Shown: positions 3,734 through 29,686 of the stretch, in pieces
Layout: the number at the start of each line of letters is the position of its first letter
How positions within the stretch are numbered: the first letter of the stretch is position 1
From: Candidatus Micrarchaeota archaeon
Lineage (GTDB): Archaea; Micrarchaeota; Micrarchaeia; Norongarragalinales; Norongarragalinaceae
Direction of reading: 5' to 3'
Length of the DNA stretch: 29,686 nucleotides
Assembly: GCA_037444485.1 (NCBI GenBank)
Contig: JBBIMI010000011.1
Location: forward strand, 1-29,686
Notes under the pieces: model-generated
What the model was told of the DNA's origin: nothing
Databases searched by the model: none
What the model saw: only the letters and a program-made list of their open reading frames with translations
Translations under genes and position numbers: made by a program

Positions 3734-6700
3734 ATGCAGACGAGAGTACTACAAGCGCTACAAGCAGCGCAAGAAGTGCCAGAAGCGTCGAAAGCGCCGG
3801 AAGCACCGCAAGCGTCGAAAGCGCCGCGAACGTTGCGAGCGCTGTTCGCCGCGCTTGTTTTTCTCGCTTTTTTTTCGCTTGCAGCGCTAGTTGCGCAAAG
3901 CGTGCAAGCGCTTTCTTTCAGTGAATACTCGTTTCTCTATGAAACTCCGAGCGCAAGCTCGTGGCAGTACTTGTTTTACGCGAAGTCGTGTAAAGGTTTT
4001 CTAAAGCAATCGTTTGAACCGCCTGCGATTCTCGTTCAAAGTAAAGAGTACGCGCCCGCGCTCGCTGCAGTGCTGGCAGCGCGGGACGCATTGCGTGAAG
4101 CGGCTGTCTTCGCGTCCTTGCAAAAGCTTTCACTCGACTGGCTTAACTATATTTACTATAATTGGTTTTCTTACTTGTGTTTTTCTCGCGGCGTCAGCGC
4201 GCTTGCGAGCGCTGAAGCTGCGGTGACAGCGTCTTTCGCGCCGCTTGACGAGTCGATTGCGAGCTTAGAATTCGCGTCTTCGAGCGAGTATACTGGAAGC
4301 GCTGGAGGGGTTTTAAACGAGTTGCGTGAAGCGTTTGAAGACGTGCGCGCGCGGCGAAGCGATGGGAACGGTTTCGGCAAGAAGTTTATTGCGAGCGTGA
4401 ATCTAGCGAACGGGGTTTCGAAGGCGTTCGCGTTCGCCAGCGCTTCAAGCAGCGATTTGTTTAACTCTGTGGATTCGCTCGCGGGACGGGAGTCTTTCTT
4501 GAAGGAGTCCATCGCATTGCGCGAGCGCGTTGTTGAAGCGCTTGAATCGCTTTACGCTGAAAACTATGCGTTGGAGCGTGACTTTAACGCGCGGTTGACT
4601 GCGGCGAAACGCATTCTCGACGAAGCGCGGAATGAAAAGCTTTACCTCGTCGGGACTGGCGCGTTTCAACTCGTTGGAGCCGGCAGCGTTTTGTCTTCAG
4701 AGTATAAAGTGGCTTCTTTCGAGGAAGAACTCGAAGACGCGCTTGCGCTTGTCGAAGACGCGCAGGCCCTTGAACGCGATGCGAGCGCGGCGCTCGCGCG
4801 TAAACGACGGGGTTTTCTTGCTGAAAGCATTTTGTTGTTGCGTGAAGCGGTTTCGAAAACTGTTAGTGCAAAGCAATCGCTTGACGGCGTTATGGAGAAA
4901 AGCGTTTTTCTAGAGAACGCATTGCGCGAGCGCGTGTTACGCGAACAACAAAACCTGCGCAACGCGATTGACGCGATTCGCGTAAGCAATCCTTACGCTG
5001 CTGCACGGGCTGAAGCATTTTTCGAAAAAGATTACGCTGCTTTGACGCAAGCCATTCGCACGCGGGGCGAGAGAATCGCGTTTTTCTTGAGTGAAGCCAC
5101 CGAGTTAATCGAATTGCAGAAGACGGCGTTTTCGTCGCAGGCGGGCGTGACGCAGGAAAAACAAGCGCTTTCAGGCGAAATCGCGTCCCTCAAGCGTTTG
5201 ATTGCGGATGCTGAGAAGGACGAGCTTGAACTTGATTACGAGAAACAGCGGCTTGCAGCAATAGAGGCGGCTGTCAAGCAATTAGGTGACGACGCGCAAA
5301 GCGCAGAGTCGCTCGCAGTGTTAAAGAAAGACTTGCAGGAATTGCGTGAAGGAGTTATAGCTCAAGCAGTGGAAAAATACTCGCTCGTATTAACGGATTA
5401 CTTTGCGCGCGTCAAGACTTTCGAAGAACTGCTCTCGCAGAAAGAGCAACTCGAATTTGCCGGAATCAATAAGTTTTTTGACGCGTTCGGGCAGCCGCGC
5501 GTGGCGGAATCGATAGGAAGCTTGAAGGGCGTGAAAAATTCGCTTGAGAAACTCATCGCGTCAATAGAACTCTCGCTTCCAGCATTATTGAAGAAAAGCT
5601 TGGAGGAAAACGCGCGCGTTACGGTGGAATTCGCGCAAGTAGAGTTAGACAAGCCTACCCGCGTCGTGCTGCGCGCAGAGTTCACCAACGTTTTACCTTA
5701 CTCTTACGACAAGCAGCTTATCTTGCAGACGAGGGAAATAAAAGATTTTCTGGCAGACTTAGAGAACGTGAAAGTGCTGAAAAAAAGCTTTGGGTTAAGC
5801 ATTTCACGCGAAGGCGTTCTATTAAACAAACTCGATAAAGAAGAGAATTACTTCATTGAACTCGAAAAGAACGTGATTATTGCTGAAAAGACCGGGGTTA
5901 CAGAACAAACTATTTCCGCATCCGAATCGCACGCAGTAAAACGTGAAAGCGTTTTCTTCAACCTCCACCCCCAGTTGCCGGCCCGCGTTTTTGTGTTAGT
6001 GAAACGCAGTCTCGCGTTTCCAGCCGAACTCACGCGCGTCGACTCGAACATTCTTGAAGCGCGCGCAGAGCGCGAAGCCGGCGGAACAACAGTAACGCTA
6101 CTCGTTTCAGCTGATTCAGGCCAGAACAAGGCAGGGTTCGAGTACGAAGTGCGCAACCCTGTCATAGTAACGCGTTCAGTGAAAACAAGCGGAAACTCGG
6201 TTGAATTAAATTATTCTTTCACTTCCTCTCACGCCGGGCTTTCGCTCGAGTCTGTCGAATTAAACGTTTTCGAAACGCTTAACTGCAGCGTGAAAAAAAT
6301 TTCCATAATCACAGCAATGCCTTACAAAACCAGTCAAGAAAACGGCTTTCTAGCAATTAGCTTCAAATCGGAGAAAATATCGCAGTACTCGAGCGAAACA
6401 GCTCTAGTGCGAATAGAGTGTGACTCGCTTGAACAAGCTGCTCGCGCAAAGCTGGAGGAACTGCGGCGACTACTCGCACAACTTGAAATCGCGGCCGAAG
6501 ACAAGACAATAATAGAAGCAAAGCTTTCGGCAGCAGAAACAGCGATAAGCAAAGAAAATTACGCTGACGCAATGCGGTTGCTGTTTGAAGCAGAAGATTT
6601 GATTCGCGTCGCGCAACAAAAAATGCTCGAGAAACAACAACTTGCGCGCGAAGCAGAACTCGCATTGAATTCTTCAATACTGTTGACTGCACAGCTCCAC

Positions 6701-7708
6701 AATGCTTCAACCGCACTCCTCGCGAAAGGCAACGTCGCGCAAGCGAACTCGCTGCTTGAAGTCGTCAAAGAAGCTGAAGCAATAATCGCGCGCGGCCGCC
6801 AATTGATTGCAGCCGGCGATTACGCAACCGCGCTCTCAGAACTCGGCGCACTTAACACGCGCCTCTCAACTGCACTAGAGGATTACGCTCGCGCAGAACT
6901 AGAACGCTTGCTTAAAGAATGCGGCGAAGCCGACAAATCAAGCGAAGCGTGCAGTGCGCAGGCACGCGAAGAACTACGGAAGGCTGCTGGCTTGATTGCG
7001 GCAAACGCTTTTCTCGACGCTTTCGACTCGCTCGCGCAAGCGGAAAAACTCTTGACGCAGTCTGCAAGCGAGTTTGAAGGCGAGAGGACTGCGAAGAGAA
7101 ATTTGATGCAGTCGTACCCGCAATTCAAGCAAGGCGTGCAAGACGCGCTCGCAGCGTTCGACGACGCGTTCAGCGTTCCGCAAGAGCTTGTTGGCGAGCG
7201 GCGAAAGAGTTTGTTGTTTCAAGAAGGCAACGTCGCGAAAACGAAGGTGGAGCGGTTGCTGAAGAAACTCGACGACGCTTGGACGGCTTTCGAAACCGGC
7301 GACGAGGCTTTCGGAAAGTATTCACTCGCGTTTTTGAATGAATCGCTCTACTCGCTCGCGGCGCTTCGCGGCGTGCTAGAAGAAAAAACTACTGCAATCA
7401 AGCTCGACGCAGAGCGCGAGCTCTCGACGGCGCGCGCGAGAGTAAAACAATTCGGTAATGATGTGACGCGCCAAGCATTGGAACGCGCTGAAAACGCTTT
7501 CGCCGAAAACAAATTTTTCACCGCGTTCGTAATCGCTAGCGAAGTGAACCGCGCGTTGGTTGGAGTGCCGTCCGCAGGCGTTGCAGAAGAACAAGCTGAA
7601 ACATGGAAGCTCATTCTCGCAATCGCTGGACTAACAATTTTGTTTGCGCTCGCGTACTTCATTGTCTTGCGCGACAAGACGCCGAAAAAGAAAAAACTGT
7701 TCGACTAA
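3734..7708 (+). CDS. Large (1324 aa) secreted, C-terminally anchored helical protein of unknown function
   Basis: N-terminal hydrophobic signal-like segment, long Ala/Glu/Leu helical regions, central beta-rich region, C-terminal TM followed by KKKK. Confidence 0.85.
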   Translation: MQTRVLQALQAAQEVPEASKAPEAPQASKAPRTLRALFAALVFLAFFSLAALVAQSVQALSFSEYSFLYETPSASSWQYLFYAKSCKGFLKQSFEPPAILVQSKEYAPALAAVLAARDALREAAVFASLQKLSLDWLNYIYYNWFSYLCFSRGVSALASAEAAVTASFAPLDESIASLEFASSSEYTGSAGGVLNELREAFEDVRARRSDGNGFGKKFIASVNLANGVSKAFAFASASSSDLFNSVDSLAGRESFLKESIALRERVVEALESLYAENYALERDFNARLTAAKRILDEARNEKLYLVGTGAFQLVGAGSVLSSEYKVASFEEELEDALALVEDAQALERDASAALARKRRGFLAESILLLREAVSKTVSAKQSLDGVMEKSVFLENALRERVLREQQNLRNAIDAIRVSNPYAAARAEAFFEKDYAALTQAIRTRGERIAFFLSEATELIELQKTAFSSQAGVTQEKQALSGEIASLKRLIADAEKDELELDYEKQRLAAIEAAVKQLGDDAQSAESLAVLKKDLQELREGVIAQAVEKYSLVLTDYFARVKTFEELLSQKEQLEFAGINKFFDAFGQPRVAESIGSLKGVKNSLEKLIASIELSLPALLKKSLEENARVTVEFAQVELDKPTRVVLRAEFTNVLPYSYDKQLILQTREIKDFLADLENVKVLKKSFGLSISREGVLLNKLDKEENYFIELEKNVIIAEKTGVTEQTISASESHAVKRESVFFNLHPQLPARVFVLVKRSLAFPAELTRVDSNILEARAEREAGGTTVTLLVSADSGQNKAGFEYEVRNPVIVTRSVKTSGNSVELNYSFTSSHAGLSLESVELNVFETLNCSVKKISIITAMPYKTSQENGFLAISFKSEKISQYSSETALVRIECDSLEQAARAKLEELRRLLAQLEIAAEDKTIIEAKLSAAETAISKENYADAMRLLFEAEDLIRVAQQKMLEKQQLAREAELALNSSILLTAQLHNASTALLAKGNVAQANSLLEVVKEAEAIIARGRQLIAAGDYATALSELGALNTRLSTALEDYARAELERLLKECGEADKSSEACSAQAREELRKAAGLIAANAFLDAFDSLAQAEKLLTQSASEFEGERTAKRNLMQSYPQFKQGVQDALAAFDDAFSVPQELVGERRKSLLFQEGNVAKTKVERLLKKLDDAWTAFETGDEAFGKYSLAFLNESLYSLAALRGVLEEKTTAIKLDAERELSTARARVKQFGNDVTRQALERAENAFAENKFFTAFVIASEVNRALVGVPSAGVAEEQAETWKLILAIAGLTILFALAYFIVLRDKTPKKKKLFD

Positions 7709-24258: not shown

Positions 24259-24557
24259 AACGCCACACCCTCAAATCAAATAAAAAAACAAGAATCGAAT
24301 AAAAAACAAGATAAAACGCTGTTGTTTAATAACTTTTCTCTAACATAACTTTTCTTTAAAATAACGCCTTTGCTAATAAAAGGGTTTTGGTAGCAGGTCA
24401 AGAGAGCAAGTTCCTGACTTTAAGATTTTTAACAACTTTTTTTTCTTTTCTTTCTTTCCTTTAACAACTTCTCCATTTCCTCTAACAACTTTTTTTCTCC
24501 CCCATTTTTTTTCTTCAACCTAACTCTTTTCCCAGCCCGCCATTAACTCTAATCCTG

Positions 24558-24660
24558 ACTCGAAACCAAGAAACCAGGAGACCTCGAAACTAAGACCCCG
24601 CTTCAAAACCAAGAACCCGCCTCGAAACCAAGAGACCTCGAAACCGAGAGATTAGAAACG
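24558..24660 (+). repeat. Degenerate tandem array of a CTCGAAACCAAGA-like unit
   Basis: About 5-6 imperfect copies with irregular period in the divergent glnA/SPFH spacer. Confidence 0.75.
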
Positions 24661-25577: not shown

Positions 25578-26573
25578 ATGCAGATTGTGATTAACGATTA
25601 CGGCGTATTTTTTGGTAAGAAAGGCGAAGTTTTTCAACTGAAAAAACCTGACGCGGAAGCTGAAGAAATTGCTGCCGAGCAAGTGAGTCAGGTAGTTATC
25701 GCGTCTCCAGCGACTGTTTCTTACGATGCGGTAAAACTCGCTATCGAGAAGGACGTTGACATAGTTTACTTGGATTGGCGTGGAATGCCGATAGCTCGAA
25801 TTTTTCCCTGCAAACTCGGTGGAACTACCCTGACGCGAAGAAAGCAATTAGAGGCTTACGAGACGGAAAAAGGCGCGGTTCTCGCGAAAACGATGGTCGG
25901 CGCCAAAATACTGAATCAAGCTTTTTTCTTGAAGTCTCTGGGAAAAAGCAGGAAAAACAAGTTGTTTTACGAGAATGCCGAAGCTATTCTAAAGTGCGAG
26001 AAGAAAATTGATTTTCTAAGCAAGAATATAGATTCCTTTAGGCAAGAGCTTTTGGGCATAGAGGGAAACTGCGCCAGCATCTACTTCAATTCTTTATCGG
26101 CAATTCTTCCTTTTAGTGGAAGGAATCAGGACGGCACCGACGCAGTAAACGTGTTCTTGAACTACGGCTACGGAATACTGTATTCCGAGATAGAGAAAGC
26201 ATGCATCTTAGCCGGCTTGGATCCTTACCTAGGCTTTTTCCATACAGATAGGTACGGCAAGCCCTCGATGGTTTTAGACTTGATTGAAGGCTTTCGCCCA
26301 ATAATAGTAGACCGCGCGATAGTCACGTTGTTCATTCAAAAGCAGGTTGACGAATCTTGTTTCGAAGAAGCGGAAGACGAAATTGGAAAAAGGTTGAGTA
26401 AGAGTGGTAGGGAAAAAATAATCAAGCAGGTTATGGAACGCTTGCACTCGAAAATAGTTTTTGAGGGAAAAAAGCTCGAGCTTCAAGGCATAATTTTGAA
26501 GCAGGCGCGAGCGATAGCGAAAAGCTTGTTGGATGATTCGTTCGAATTCAAGCCATTCATTTACAAGTGGTAG
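25578..26573 (+). CDS. cas1: CRISPR-associated integrase Cas1
   Basis: LLGIEG..A..YF, D..N..LNYGY..L, GLDPY.GF.H, LDL.E.FRP..VD; catalytic E/H/acidic residues present. Confidence 0.97.
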   Translation: MQIVINDYGVFFGKKGEVFQLKKPDAEAEEIAAEQVSQVVIASPATVSYDAVKLAIEKDVDIVYLDWRGMPIARIFPCKLGGTTLTRRKQLEAYETEKGAVLAKTMVGAKILNQAFFLKSLGKSRKNKLFYENAEAILKCEKKIDFLSKNIDSFRQELLGIEGNCASIYFNSLSAILPFSGRNQDGTDAVNVFLNYGYGILYSEIEKACILAGLDPYLGFFHTDRYGKPSMVLDLIEGFRPIIVDRAIVTLFIQKQVDESCFEEAEDEIGKRLSKSGREKIIKQVMERLHSKIVFEGKKLELQGIILKQARAIAKSLLDDSFEFKPFIYKW

Positions 26574-26585
26574 GGTAGTAAGAGA

Positions 26586-26864
26586 ATGTATTGGGTTATT
26601 TACGACATTAGCGAAAACAAAGTGCGTTCCAAAATCGTTAGGTTGTGCAAGAACTTCGGCTTGAGGAGAGTGCAGAAAAGCGCGTTTCTCGGATTGCTTT
26701 CGAAAAACAAGGCGGAAATGCTTTACGAGAAAAGCAAGGAAGTCCTCGAAGAAAGCGACTGCGTTTTCTTTCTTCCAGCTTGCAGAGAGTGCTTCAAAAG
26801 CAAGATAATCGCTGGAGAATTCGATGAAGATAAGTTCAAAGAGAAGGATTTCGTGGTGGTTTGA
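26586..26864 (+). CDS. cas2: CRISPR-associated protein Cas2
   Basis: VIYDIS..K.R, G..RVQKSAF.G; 92 aa; follows cas1. Confidence 0.96.
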   Translation: MYWVIYDISENKVRSKIVRLCKNFGLRRVQKSAFLGLLSKNKAEMLYEKSKEVLEESDCVFFLPACRECFKSKIIAGEFDEDKFKEKDFVVV

Positions 26865-27488
26865 ATGAATCGAAACGGCGTTTTGTCGATGAAGGACGTA
26901 ATGAATTTCGAGTACTGTCCTAGAATAATTTATTTCGAGCACGTCTTGCGGGAACCGCAAGAGACGACTATAAAAGAATTCGCTGGCAGGGAGAAAGACA
27001 AAGCGTACACGCCGTATTCCAAGCGGCTTAAGATAATCAAGCGTGAAAAGCCGCTGAAAGCAGAGCAGAAGACTGAATTGCCGGCGTTGGAGCGGAAGTA
27101 CAAGGTTTGGCTGTATTCGAGGGAAAAAAATTTTCAGACGGTTTTAGACTGCTTATTGTTTAACAATGAAGAAAAGAAGGCTTTTCCTTTGCAGTTTAAG
27201 AATACTTTCACGCCCGAAATTGTTTTTCGCACCCAAAAGTTGCAATTGTACGGCGAAGCGTCGCTCGTAAAAGAATTGCTTTGTTTTGACGTTCCAGCTG
27301 GTTTCTTGAAGTTTTTGAAGTCGGGCGATTGCATTAAAATACCTATTTGCGCTTATGGTTTAGAATGGTTTGAAGGCGTCTTGAGTGACGTAAGCAATAT
27401 AATTGAAGAGGAATGCTTGCCTGAACCGACGCCTCACAAGAAACGATGCGTTGACTGCTGCTTCAAAAAACAATGCTTGAGGACGTAA
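26865..27488 (+). CDS. cas4: CRISPR-associated protein Cas4 (atypical nuclease motifs)
   Basis: YCPR N-terminal Cys plus C..C.F...C C-terminal Fe-S ligands; abuts cas2 (TGA ATG); motifs D95, Q110-x-K112. Confidence 0.92.
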   Translation: MNRNGVLSMKDVMNFEYCPRIIYFEHVLREPQETTIKEFAGREKDKAYTPYSKRLKIIKREKPLKAEQKTELPALERKYKVWLYSREKNFQTVLDCLLFNNEEKKAFPLQFKNTFTPEIVFRTQKLQLYGEASLVKELLCFDVPAGFLKFLKSGDCIKIPICAYGLEWFEGVLSDVSNIIEEECLPEPTPHKKRCVDCCFKKQCLRT

Positions 27489-27507
27489 AGAAAGAGAGGT
27501 CATTTAA

Positions 27508-29217
27508 TTGGTTAGAAAGAGGAATGCGCAAGCAAAACAGATAAAATTATCCATTAAACTACGTTTTAAACCAAACCCAGAACAAGCAAAAGGAATATTG
27601 AAGTATCTTGAAAATTATAAACACATTTTTAACGTGGCGTCTAAGCGCATAAGTGAAATCAGGAGTCCATGGGCAGACATAGACGCGCAGATAAATTGCG
27701 ATAAGTGCAAAATAGAGAGTCCTAGAAATAATAAACAAAATTTGCGCACAGGGGAAAAAAGATGCCCAAAATGCTATAATTATGAATTCGGCAATCAATT
27801 CATACGAAAACTTGTTTTGCCTTCTCGTAGAAAGTCGGATATCACTAAACCCGTAGATCGGATCTTGCGGTTGACACCACAAAAGCTTGATTATTACGCG
27901 TTAGTCGATCACGCAATAAACCACTACGAATCATTTAAAGAACAGATTAAACAGCGAAAGAGAGTGCTTAAGAGATTCCGACTGAGATTGAACAGGTTTG
28001 AACAAATTTTAGAGGGTATAGGCTCGCCAAAGGTTGTAGAAATACTGCCTACTGGAAAAAAAAGGGTTTCTCGTTATCAGCTCAGAGAAAACTTTGAAAA
28101 AGGATTCAAAAGAGGTTACACTTTAAATGAATTGCAAAATAAAGTAATTAGCCTGAACGAAGATATAGAACGCAAGCAAAAGTCACTCAAAAGAAGCGCA
28201 ACACCACAACTCAAAAAGTTAATCGCAAAATTGTGGCAGGGTAAAGCAAAATTCGATTTTTCACAAGAGTCAGCACCGCGTTTGAGTCTAGAAATTGGTG
28301 GAGAAAAGTATGAAGACATGCCGATCGTTGTTAAGGACATTGTAAGCGAGACGAGTAGGAAGAGGGTTGAAGATGCACTTTCCACTATAAAGGAAGAATA
28401 CTTCAAAAACAAAGAAATTTCAGAATATGCTTACTTCTTTGCAAAACCGTCGCGAAAAAATCTTTCAGAAAGAGAGAAAACCCCAAGCAATTATGAATTT
28501 TATCTTCAATACACTTTTACGCCCAAAATCGAAGAAGAGTATATCCCTGAAACAGTTTTGGGTATAGATCTTGGAATAAAACATCCAGTTGTTTATTCTC
28601 TAGAAAAATTGCCAACATCTCCATCTCAGAAACCTATAGAAGTAAAGTTTGATCCAAGACCTGAAAATGTTCGGGGGGCAGATGTTATAAAAAAATTTCT
28701 AGAAAAAAAGAACCGAAGAGGAAACTATTTGTGGCGAATAGCGCCACGCAATAGAAAGGGAGAAGGCATTAAAAGAAAAAGTAATCGCCTTAAGTCGCTT
28801 CGTTCGATAACGAATTATGAGAATTGGTTTTTTCACAACATTTCAAAAAATTTGGTTAATTTAGCAAAATCAAAAAAAGCGCTTATAGCTATGGAAAATC
28901 TCGAAGGGATACGGCGCCGCATCCGGTATACGGGTAAGGAAAACCGTAGAGTGTTGTCGCTATTTACGCAAAAAAAGCTTCGAGATCTAATTAAATATAA
29001 AGCAAAACTGGCTGGTGTGCCATTCATTGAAGTACCGCCCGCTGAAACGAGCAAAAGGTGCTATGTCTGCGAAAAAGAAGGTGAAAGACCATACGAAGGA
29101 AATAGTGAACTATTTCACTGCAAAGAGTGCAATAAGACATTCAATGCGAACTATAATGCGAGCCGCAACATAGCAGCAAAAGGTTTTAAAATCTGGTCAG
29201 TACATAACAAGAAATAG
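27508..29217 (+). CDS. cas12f: Type V-F miniature effector Cas12f2 (Cas14b-like), 569 aa
   Basis: RuvC-I GIDLG (D354), RuvC-II AMENL (E463), YKAK..GV....VPP..TSK.C..C / C..C zinc finger, RuvC-III NANYNASRNIA; N-terminal CxxC..CxxC; segments I recall from Cas14b proteins (RGY.L, YAY..F.LQYT, F..KKL.DL..YKA, RP..GNS.LF.C); context of cas1/2/4 plus array; GAGGT RBS plus TTG. Confidence 0.92.
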   Translation: MVRKRNAQAKQIKLSIKLRFKPNPEQAKGILKYLENYKHIFNVASKRISEIRSPWADIDAQINCDKCKIESPRNNKQNLRTGEKRCPKCYNYEFGNQFIRKLVLPSRRKSDITKPVDRILRLTPQKLDYYALVDHAINHYESFKEQIKQRKRVLKRFRLRLNRFEQILEGIGSPKVVEILPTGKKRVSRYQLRENFEKGFKRGYTLNELQNKVISLNEDIERKQKSLKRSATPQLKKLIAKLWQGKAKFDFSQESAPRLSLEIGGEKYEDMPIVVKDIVSETSRKRVEDALSTIKEEYFKNKEISEYAYFFAKPSRKNLSEREKTPSNYEFYLQYTFTPKIEEEYIPETVLGIDLGIKHPVVYSLEKLPTSPSQKPIEVKFDPRPENVRGADVIKKFLEKKNRRGNYLWRIAPRNRKGEGIKRKSNRLKSLRSITNYENWFFHNISKNLVNLAKSKKALIAMENLEGIRRRIRYTGKENRRVLSLFTQKKLRDLIKYKAKLAGVPFIEVPPAETSKRCYVCEKEGERPYEGNSELFHCKECNKTFNANYNASRNIAAKGFKIWSVHNKK

Positions 29218-29219
29218 GC

Positions 29220-29240
29220 AAACTTGACCTTGTCAAGTTT
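29220..29240 (+). terminator. Perfect 9-bp inverted repeat right after the effector stop (terminator or processing hairpin)
   Basis: AAACTTGAC-CTT-GTCAAGTTT. Confidence 0.45.
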
Positions 29241-29254
29241 TCGGCTTAGTTATA

Positions 29255-29480
29255 CTCACTTTGTGAGGTCTAGTCAAGAGCAATCTTCGGACCCTACTTA
29301 GACTAGACGACCTCCACTGCAGAGGTCAAGGCTGTGAAAAACAGTCTGCATGGGCGCAATGATAAGCTTAGGGCCAGCGTAAGCTGCTACCGAAAGCGTC
29401 CCTAAAGGAACGTTAAGAGAAATTTTCTCTAAACGTGGACGCGCCCAATCCTAGTTAAGGTTCAACCAGCTCCGCAAGTA
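29255..29480 (+). ncRNA. Putative tracrRNA of the Cas12f2 system
   Basis: Dense hairpins, including GNRA-loop stems, plus anti-repeat 29447-29478 matching the repeat reverse complement ungapped at 20/32 and a separate TGCAT at 29347-29351; ends approximate. Confidence 0.78.
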
Positions 29481-29578
29481 TTTATTAATGAGTTTGTAAA
29501 AATGCCAGTTACATTAAATCACCTTCTAAACAACCGTTCTTAGGCTTCCGTTAGTCGAAAGGAGAAATTTTTTTGCCT
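29481..29578 (+). promoter_or_regulatory. CRISPR leader
   Basis: Non-coding ~100 bp between the anti-repeat and the first repeat; AT-rich with TTTATTAA TATA-like box. Confidence 0.6.
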
Positions 29579-29686
29579 GTTGCGGCGCGCGAATAAACGA
29601 GACTAGGAATGCAACATAAATTCCAGTTTTCCTTTGGAAATCTCGTTTTCAAGTTGCGGCGCGCGAATAAACGAGACTAGGAATGC
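29579..29686 (+). CRISPR. Start of CRISPR array: 37-bp repeat GTTGCGGCGCGCGAATAAACGAGACTAGGAATGCAAC, one 37-bp spacer, second repeat cut by window end
   Basis: Repeat 29579-29615, spacer 29616-29652, identical repeat 29653-29686 (34 nt visible); GTTGC...GCAAC termini and GGAATGCAAC 3' end typical of archaeal Cas14 repeats. Confidence 0.93.

Follow-up and report, generated by a model that had tools for sequence, protein, structure and literature searches.

The stretch of DNA analysed here (the window; 29,686 nucleotides (nt), the whole of contig C11, JBBIMI010000011.1, of a Candidatus Micrarchaeota archaeon genome) ends in a CRISPR–Cas locus with cas1, cas2 and cas4, a gene for a Cas12f2-like (Cas14b-like) effector, a putative trans-activating CRISPR RNA (tracrRNA), a leader and the start of an array. 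The locus is of V-F2 type and looks complete except that its array is truncated; it carries a rare change, conserved within its lineage, at the catalytic site, where the third RuvC residue of the effector is Asn. We are highly confident that it is a chromosomal type V-F2-like CRISPR–Cas adaptive immunity locus in a small-genome archaeon. A preliminary description, made from the nucleotide letters, had likewise assigned it to type V-F (Cas14b-like) and likened its layout to DPANN Cas14 loci, and the assignment is borne out by profile matches, by a phylogenetic tree and by a gene order common to four other Cas12f2 loci. The features of the locus are:

25578..26573, + strand: cas1, 331 amino acids (aa); Pfam Cas_Cas1 246.4 bits; TIGR00287 266.9 bits (cut-off 71.7), full length
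26586..26864, + strand: cas2, 92 aa; Pfam CRISPR_Cas2 63.9 bits; TIGR01573 49.9 bits
26865..27488, + strand: divergent cas4, 207 aa; TIGR00372 63 bits (cut-off 65); PADLOC Cas4b 80.8 bits, end to end
27508..29217, + strand: cas12f2-like effector gene, 569 aa, TTG start; two zinc-finger Cys quartets; RuvC triad D354-E463-N548
29149..29151, + strand: codon AAC for N548, the third RuvC catalytic position; motif NAN instead of NAD
29220..29240, + strand: 9-bp hairpin followed by TTTT, just 3′ of the effector stop, in the minimum free energy structure; a pattern scan flagged it on the − strand
29245..29478, + strand: putative tracrRNA; hairpin 29255-29267, UGCA-loop hairpin 29309-29327, helix 29351-29357/29441-29447 and anti-repeat 29446-29478
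29480..29578, + strand: A+T-rich leader; TATA-like ATTTATTAAT at 29480-29489; a similar A/T block is aligned in five relatives (alignment A3)
29579..29615, + strand: CRISPR repeat 1, 37 nt, ending TAGGAATGCAAC
29616..29652, + strand: spacer 1, 37 nt
29653..29686, + strand: CRISPR repeat 2, partial; first 34 nt, identical to repeat 1; cut by the contig end

The four open reading frames (ORFs) at 25578-29217 are co-oriented on the + strand, separated by gaps of 12, 0 and 19 nt and all intact, and together with the Pfam, TIGR and PADLOC matches they confirm the tightly packed cas1-cas2-cas4-effector arrangement first described. Comparison loci were found through a generic RuvC-III pattern scan of genome contigs, which returned mostly TnpB loci; L003, L004, L006, L020, L025 and L078 were useful. 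The cas1-cas2-cas4-cas12f2 order also occurs in L003 (a Pacearchaeota metagenome-assembled genome (MAG)), L006 (Hadarchaeales), L020 (a gammaproteobacterial MAG) and L089 (a genome of the window's class), where the products are of about 327-329 aa for cas1 where complete, 94-107 aa for cas2, 191-203 aa for cas4 and 544-585 aa for cas12f2. The same four loci match the proposed succession of components as a whole, from cas1-cas2-cas4-effector through an intergenic RNA region to the array.

The effector matches the NCBIfam model CRISPR_Cas12f2 (NF049972) at 267.6 bits, below the cut-off of 450, with residues 15-562 aligned to model positions 1-522 of 524, and matches the PADLOC 'Cas14b' model end to end at 228 bits. 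The general TnpB subfamily model scores 114.7 bits (cut-off 100) over the C-terminal part only, and the effector fails the equivalog TnpB profiles (IS200_TnpB, 32.7 bits, cut-off 425; IS607_TnpB, 28.2 bits, cut-off 350). An exhaustive HMMER search of 1.84 billion cluster representatives returned only 4 proteins at E ≤ 1e-30, namely P0002 (554 aa), which is 54% identical, and three at ~30%. About 17 full-length canonical relatives show 21-29% identity, and with a sole closer relative at 54% the protein is, as first proposed, a divergent orthologue. Against the Cas12f2 profile, P0002 scores 303.9 bits, while 9/17 canonical relatives pass at 482-695 bits and 8/17 fall below the cut-off.

An IQ-TREE phylogeny combined the window protein and P0002 with the 17 canonical relatives, five further long relatives and 21 TnpB-like proteins (45 rows in all). 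It joins the window protein and P0002 in a clade with a Shimodaira–Hasegawa approximate likelihood ratio test (SH-aLRT) value of 100 and a long stem branch (1.35 changes per column). Sets of 15 rows (SH-aLRT 95) and 22 rows (96) enclose this clade and also contain Cas12f2 proteins that pass the profile, and the Cas12f2-like clade is split from 20 grouped TnpB-like rows at SH-aLRT 98. The tree comes from a quick short search with SH-aLRT values only and some long branches, so that its support is moderate, and two rows labelled by length (P0040 and P0042) were both placed opposite to their label. Profile search and phylogeny, named as checks in the preliminary description, agree: the Cas12f2 model is matched end to end, and the protein groups with Cas12f2-like proteins and not with TnpB, nor do the identities make it a near-identical copy of a characterized protein. 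Five proteins elsewhere in the Cas12f2-like part of the tree (P0030, P0040, P0045, P0092 and P0119; 434-627 aa, 4/5 of them 569-627 aa) form a tight, long-stemmed clade with the RuvC-III motif IDADLNAAR(V/T)I and match the Cas12f2 profile in their C-terminal half only.

An AlphaFold2 model of the effector, built from a 19-sequence alignment (the window protein, P0002 and the 17 canonical relatives), has a mean predicted local distance difference test (pLDDT) score of 83 and a predicted template modelling score of 0.72. The top 10 Foldseek matches in the PDB are all Cas12f1-guide-DNA complexes (8dzj, 8j12, 8j3r, 8hr5 and others), TnpB appears at rank 40, and neither the sequence nor the Foldseek search of the PDB found a Cas12f2 structure. 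The two segments that had been named as insertions are ordinary variable linkers: KPSRKNLSEREKTPSN lies in a variable-length linker that is longer in some relatives, and EKLPTSPSQKP is also present in the closest relative. The sole segment absent from all relatives comprises about 10 effector residues near 384-393, modelled at pLDDT < 50.

The residue that sets this lineage apart is N548. In the 19-sequence alignment 17/17 canonical relatives have Asp at the third RuvC position, where the window protein and P0002 have Asn; in two solved TnpB/Cas12f chains, HMMER places the Asp of NAD opposite N548. Among the 111 motif-bearing sequences of 156 proteins, 107 have D at this position, 3 have N and 1 has H; the N occurs in the window protein, in P0002 and in P0061, a fragment of 94 aa that is 53% identical over 80 residues. 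The motif NAN is found in 6/6 known sequences of the lineage, cluster members included, down to 54% identity and from at least three data sources, and a Logan contig from an independent assembly agrees with the window at every position of 28600-29608; the Asn is therefore a lineage trait and not an assembly error. No P0002-like relatives were found in metagenome contigs, either with the two-protein alignment or with P0002 alone, and a word-indexed search of shorter proteins for fragments of the lineage, with the last 140 residues as query, yielded nothing but an unrelated match at 41%.

The change lies in an otherwise well-kept nuclease domain. Across the 19-sequence alignment, the two zinc quartets (C64, C67, C86 and C89; C518, C521, C538 and C541), D354 (RuvC-I), E463 (RuvC-II) and the RuvC-III residues N546, N550, A551, N554 and I555 vary little or not at all. 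The clade keeps 46/57 of the family-conserved columns (≥14/17 relatives); at those in the RuvC half (n = 34) it departs only at I504V and D548N, and D548N is the sole non-conservative departure from family-conserved residues in this half. The N-terminal half accounts for the remaining nine departures, among them the 17/17-invariant K19 and H192. We note that K19R, R176V and H192L (27562-27564, 28033-28035 and 28081-28083) replace residues that are the same in 16-17/17 canonical Cas12f2 relatives, and given these replacements the recognition of the protospacer-adjacent motif (PAM) or of the guide may differ in the lineage too.

By strict tests of V-F2 membership, the effector scores below the curated profile cut-off and lacks the D-E-D triad, and it is therefore a divergent Cas12f2-like variant and not a plain member. 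The Asn had been overlooked when the window was said to hold all parts needed for reconstitution; with this residue at the third RuvC position, it cannot be taken for granted that the parts would reconstitute a nuclease. Neither a Cas12f2 lineage with Asn here nor a natural dead Cas12f2 turned up in literature searches or in PMC12669027, PMC10910872, PMC10606334, PMC7229846 and PMC10705468; supplements may list such variants.

Canonical Cas12f2 proteins (Mi1, Mi2 and Au) carry out cleavage of double-stranded DNA guided by tracrRNA and CRISPR RNA next to a T-rich PAM (PMC7229846), and RuvC inactivation is recurrent in type V, where V-C and V-M interfere by binding (PMC12669027, PMC11013384). 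With these precedents and the altered active site, we give even odds to a window effector that is impaired in cleavage and whose protection comes mainly from stable RNA-guided binding, as with Cas12m and Cas12c. Under this reading, Cas1-Cas2 with Cas4 would, as homology and layout suggest, insert new 37-nt spacers beside the leader; the array would be transcribed from the A+T-rich leader; a tracrRNA from the 361-nt effector-array interval would pair with the repeat; and the 569-aa effector would use the dual RNA to find complementary DNA, where it would bind stably and block transcription or replication instead of making a double-strand cut. In E. coli RuvC, mutants with Asn in place of Asp, or Gln in place of Glu, still bind junctions but do not cleave them. 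A stricter form of the proposal is a natural cleavage-dead D-E-N Cas12f2 lineage with a full set of cas1-cas2-cas4, tracrRNA and array, whose immunity works purely by RNA-guided DNA binding; this we put forward tentatively, as falling somewhat short of an even chance.

Alternatively, the effector could be an ordinary competent V-F2 nuclease, in which Asn supports metal-dependent cleavage with an altered metal preference or rate, or with help from a nearby acidic residue (E513), an explanation that we take seriously and on balance doubt. Several points speak for it and weigh against a loss of cleavage. Only one of the three catalytic residues is changed, and to an amide still able to touch metal; in some enzymes of the RNase H fold, Asn or His is tolerated at the corresponding position. 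D354, E463, H443, T514-S515, both Cys quartets and the remaining RuvC-III motif are kept. Identity between the window protein and P0002 is 64.6% in the RuvC half and 46.8% in the N-terminal half, a pattern as compatible with an active site that works as with a structural role. The clade-specific E513 adjoins the invariant T514-S515 and might compensate, and the adaptation module is complete and accompanied by an array. Single-site changes of the DED motif have also given false 'dead' calls and were excluded in PMC10705468 because a catalytic residue can sit at another position. On the other side, Asp holds the position in 17/17 canonical and 107/111 motif-bearing relatives, and P0061 reads NAN without E513. 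The catalytic residue known to relocate is Glu, not the third-position Asp. According to PMC10705468, mutating any of the three residues abolishes activity, and the residue that relocates is there called 'one of the catalytic residues'.

It is improbable that the locus is decaying or non-functional, with catalysis lost and the array short through loss and not through assembly. Only 1.9 repeats are visible, Cas4 and the effector both score below curated cut-offs, and a related copy in another sample departs from the effector gene at 29158 and has an in-frame stop upstream. Decay nevertheless fits poorly because the four ORFs are intact and the Asn is kept across 54% identity while 46/57 family-conserved columns are unchanged; in addition, the array stops at the contig end, the Logan contig of the likely source sample likewise stops inside the first repeat, and two other samples carry a tracr region that is ~95% conserved. 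That the protein is a transposon TnpB, or a TldR-like domesticated regulator merely beside cas genes, is scarcely credible: its closest relative is named 'IS605 OrfB family transposase' by sources and the TnpB subfamily model exceeds its cut-off (114.7 bits against 100), but the Cas12f2 match runs end to end at 267.6 bits, the clade lies within Cas12f2-like proteins and is split from TnpB-like rows at SH-aLRT 98, the gene stands between cas4 and the array as in four other V-F2 loci and is the single TnpB-family gene in the genome, and the Pfam scan of the window found no transposase family, no search aimed at tnpA having been made.

A tracrRNA on the + strand of the effector-array interval is plausible and partly supported. 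What stands of the tracrRNA first proposed between effector and array is a structured region with an anti-repeat at the homologous position; its ends and strand are predictions only. Immediately downstream of the effector, the hairpin at 29220-29240 with its TTTT is a possible end of the cas transcript. The region 29218-29470 folds at −88.8 kcal/mol (z = −4.84), and 0/200 shuffles are as stable. An alignment with five relatives reveals two common blocks, in the same order. Block 1 is a hairpin whose loop includes TTGCA, for which the window hairpin at 29309-29327 has CUGCA. Block 2 is CCAAT...TAGT, at 29446-29456 in the window, and corresponds to the cognate anti-repeat in L004, L025, L006 and L020. 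Pairing of the window anti-repeat with the repeat is predicted to be bipartite, with ~7 bp between 29449-29455 and repeat positions 24-30 and 6 bp between 29472-29477 and repeat positions 2-7.

Conservation beyond the window comes from two contigs. A 909-nt contig from a different study (run X2) is ~95% identical over 29158-29541, and a 151-nt contig of another sample covers 29457-29604. The X2 variant carries 12 substitutions in 29218-29480, two of which form a compensatory pair at 29257/29265 (C-G to A-U, probability 0.99); of the others, 2 keep pairing via G-U on the + strand only, 7 fall at unpaired positions and 1 breaks a terminal pair, and both 2-nt insertions are in loops. Upstream of 29158 (60 nt before the effector stop) the X2 contig, of depth 3.1, is unlike the window and has an in-frame stop; it may represent a tracr-leader module without effector, a recombination joint or a low-depth chimera.

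Set against a tracrRNA here are the opposite strand of 29218-29470, which folds about as well (z = −4.26); an nhmmer search with the five relatives' regions, which reached only E values of 0.87 and 1, both matches lying in or next to the intergenic region; three X2 substitutions that hit the proposed anti-repeat core (changes at 29452-29456), for which the matching repeat positions (29602-29607) are without cover; and the repeat:anti-repeat duplex, whose energy of −25.6 kcal/mol is matched by 109/500 shuffled repeats. A 6×6 matrix of duplex energies between loci is not clearly diagonal either, and for these two reasons the anti-repeat energy was rejected as stand-alone evidence. No Rfam family reaches its gathering score anywhere in the window. 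The sequencing runs listed include no RNA run, which is neutral as evidence.

The array within the window amounts to ~1.9 repeat units, and the other 57 contigs of the genome hold no further copy of the repeat. Since the window is the whole contig, it is the assembly end that truncates the array. Of the array of identical 37-bp repeats first reported, one full repeat and an identical 34-nt second are real, and the array itself is only a stub cut by assembly. Extension of the contig, suggested as the way to the full array, did not recover it: the matching Logan contig stops inside repeat 1, and there is no cover beyond 29635. The position and the repeat agree with those of relatives. In L003, L004, L006, L020, L025 and L089 the array starts 285-430 nt 3′ of the effector on the same strand, compared with 361 nt in the window, and the repeat tail ...GCAAC is common to these six other Cas12f2 loci, of which five (L003, L004, L006, L020 and L025) end AGGAATGCAAC and L089 ends AGATGCAAC. 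The window and L089 repeats are identical at 29/37 positions by eye. A likeness to the Un1Cas12f1 repeat, put at about 28/37 positions in the preliminary description, amounts by eye to 26/37 when the comparison is with the stretch of an engineered guide that derives from the repeat (bioRxiv 10.1101/2022.10.20.513037); the earlier figure seems about right. The leader upstream of repeat 1 is a putative promoter that would drive transcription of the array.

Spacer 1 has no second copy in the genome at ≤3 mismatches and no exact match in viral contigs. In the likely source sample, a 6520-nt record (run X1, record 2) has one repeat copy at 47-83, identical at 35/37 positions, followed by ~6.4 kb of other sequence; its depth is 22 compared with 10, and it is absent from the binned genome. 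It could hold a degenerate terminal repeat and the trailer of the window array, or belong to the array of a related strain.

Within the adaptation module, Cas4 is the divergent member. The window protein keeps four Cys, has the nuclease motif QxK (Q110-x-K112; D95) and shares 39-45% identity with its counterparts in three other Cas12f2 loci; it has no match among PDB sequences at E ≤ 1. Cas4/RecB nucleases have E-x-K at the position that reads Q-x-K in Cas12f2-linked Cas4. The Q-x-K form is found in 5/5 Cas4 proteins beside Cas12f2 genes (the window, L003:5412-5987, L006:5342-5923, L020:4673-5269 and L089:686-1297, the last by eye). All four Fe-S cysteines of Cas4 are present in the window and L006 and mostly lost in L003 and L020.

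The host genome comprises 961,727 nt in 58 contigs, is an estimated 95% complete and contains an archaeal small-subunit (SSU) rRNA gene, for which the archaeal model is best in a clan comparison; kin genomes of the same order measure 0.4-1.6 Mb. Genome size and the named hosts of related loci suggest that the host is a DPANN-type archaeon. This locus holds the sole CRISPR array, the sole cas1 and the sole TnpB-family gene of the genome. According to the Pfam scan of the window, it is surrounded by housekeeping genes, PheRS alpha and beta, glutamine synthetase and an SPFH protein. The G+C content of the cas genes is 0.36-0.43, compared with ~0.46-0.49 for contigs. A close relative of the effector was found in 0/67 same-order genomes and in 0/400 sampled same-phylum genomes, many of which are incomplete, and any Cas12f2-like match at E ≤ 1e-25 occurs in 1/400 of the latter. 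The housekeeping neighbours, the lower G+C content and the patchy spread among kin indicate that the locus was probably acquired horizontally into the chromosome.

Other features of the genome were recorded in passing. Two k-mer candidates for further arrays (G000:C5:45397-45574 and G000:C4:388-533) were rejected as tandem repeats of ~60 and 73 nt, without unique spacers and near contig ends. The archaeal 16S rRNA match at G000:C12:21763-24721 (locus L002) spans model positions 1-1478 across 2,959 nt of DNA, and the gene therefore contains ~1.5 kb of inserted sequence, as intron(s) or insertion(s). A 1,324-aa ORF at 3734-7708 on the + strand, larger than any other gene of the contig, has no Pfam match at E ≤ 1e-5. 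Between the glutamine synthetase and SPFH genes, 24545-24654 contains imperfect short direct repeats of CTCGAAACCAAGA-like units (families D1 and D2).

Cas12f proteins are the smallest CRISPR effectors in use. The locus adds a lineage ~70% diverged from characterized Cas12f2, with a guide-RNA region and a repeat-spacer unit in hand, to a branch with only three characterized members (PMC7229846). If the Asn kills cleavage, immunity based on binding would have arisen independently once more in type V, here beside a complete module for spacer acquisition, and the effector would be a ready-made natural 'dCas12f' of 569 aa reached through a single surgical change of Asp in a conserved nuclease domain. 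If a protein with the Asn still cuts, the Cas12 RuvC triad tolerates Asn, which matters for sequence-based screens for 'dead' nucleases. Either way, this is not a new kind of system.

Among known systems, the TnpB-like nuclease-dead repressors (TldRs) have in common with the window effector that they are TnpB-family proteins with an altered DED motif (PMC10705468); the window effector differs in having one residue changed and its zinc ribbon intact, and TldRs have no linkage to cas1-cas2-cas4 or an array. Cas12m (V-M) and Cas12c (V-C), with their binding-based defence (PMC11013384, PMC12669027), are proposed as a working analogy only. The window effector has a catalytic residue replaced and its locus has full cas1-cas2-cas4; no V-M or V-C profile is among the best NCBIfam/PADLOC matches, and a Cas12m chain matches the effector weakly (residues 480-561, E = 1.6e-4). 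Un1Cas12f1 (Cas14a1) and the solved Cas12f1 proteins, of subtype V-F1, match the effector best in structure (Foldseek, with E = 1.7e-14 to 1e-10 and probability 1.00), with modest global template modelling scores of 0.36-0.46 on the query, whereas sequence likeness is confined to the RuvC half or absent; the Un1Cas12f1 entries 7c7l and 7l48 were not found in the PDB sequence search at E ≤ 0.01. The Un1Cas12f1 repeat agrees at the 26/37 positions counted above, and the UGCA hairpin loop of the window has a counterpart in the TTGCA of the engineered scaffold as printed. The nearest relatives are Cas12f2/Cas14b (Mi1Cas12f2, which is Cas14b4, Mi2Cas12f2 and AuCas12f2), which the window locus resembles in its profiles, gene order, GCAAC-type 37-nt repeat, zinc quartets and small-genome archaeal host, and from whose canonical form its effector differs in being 21-29% identical, in its profile score of 267.6 bits and long stem, in reading NAN and not NAD, and in the replacement of K19 and H192.

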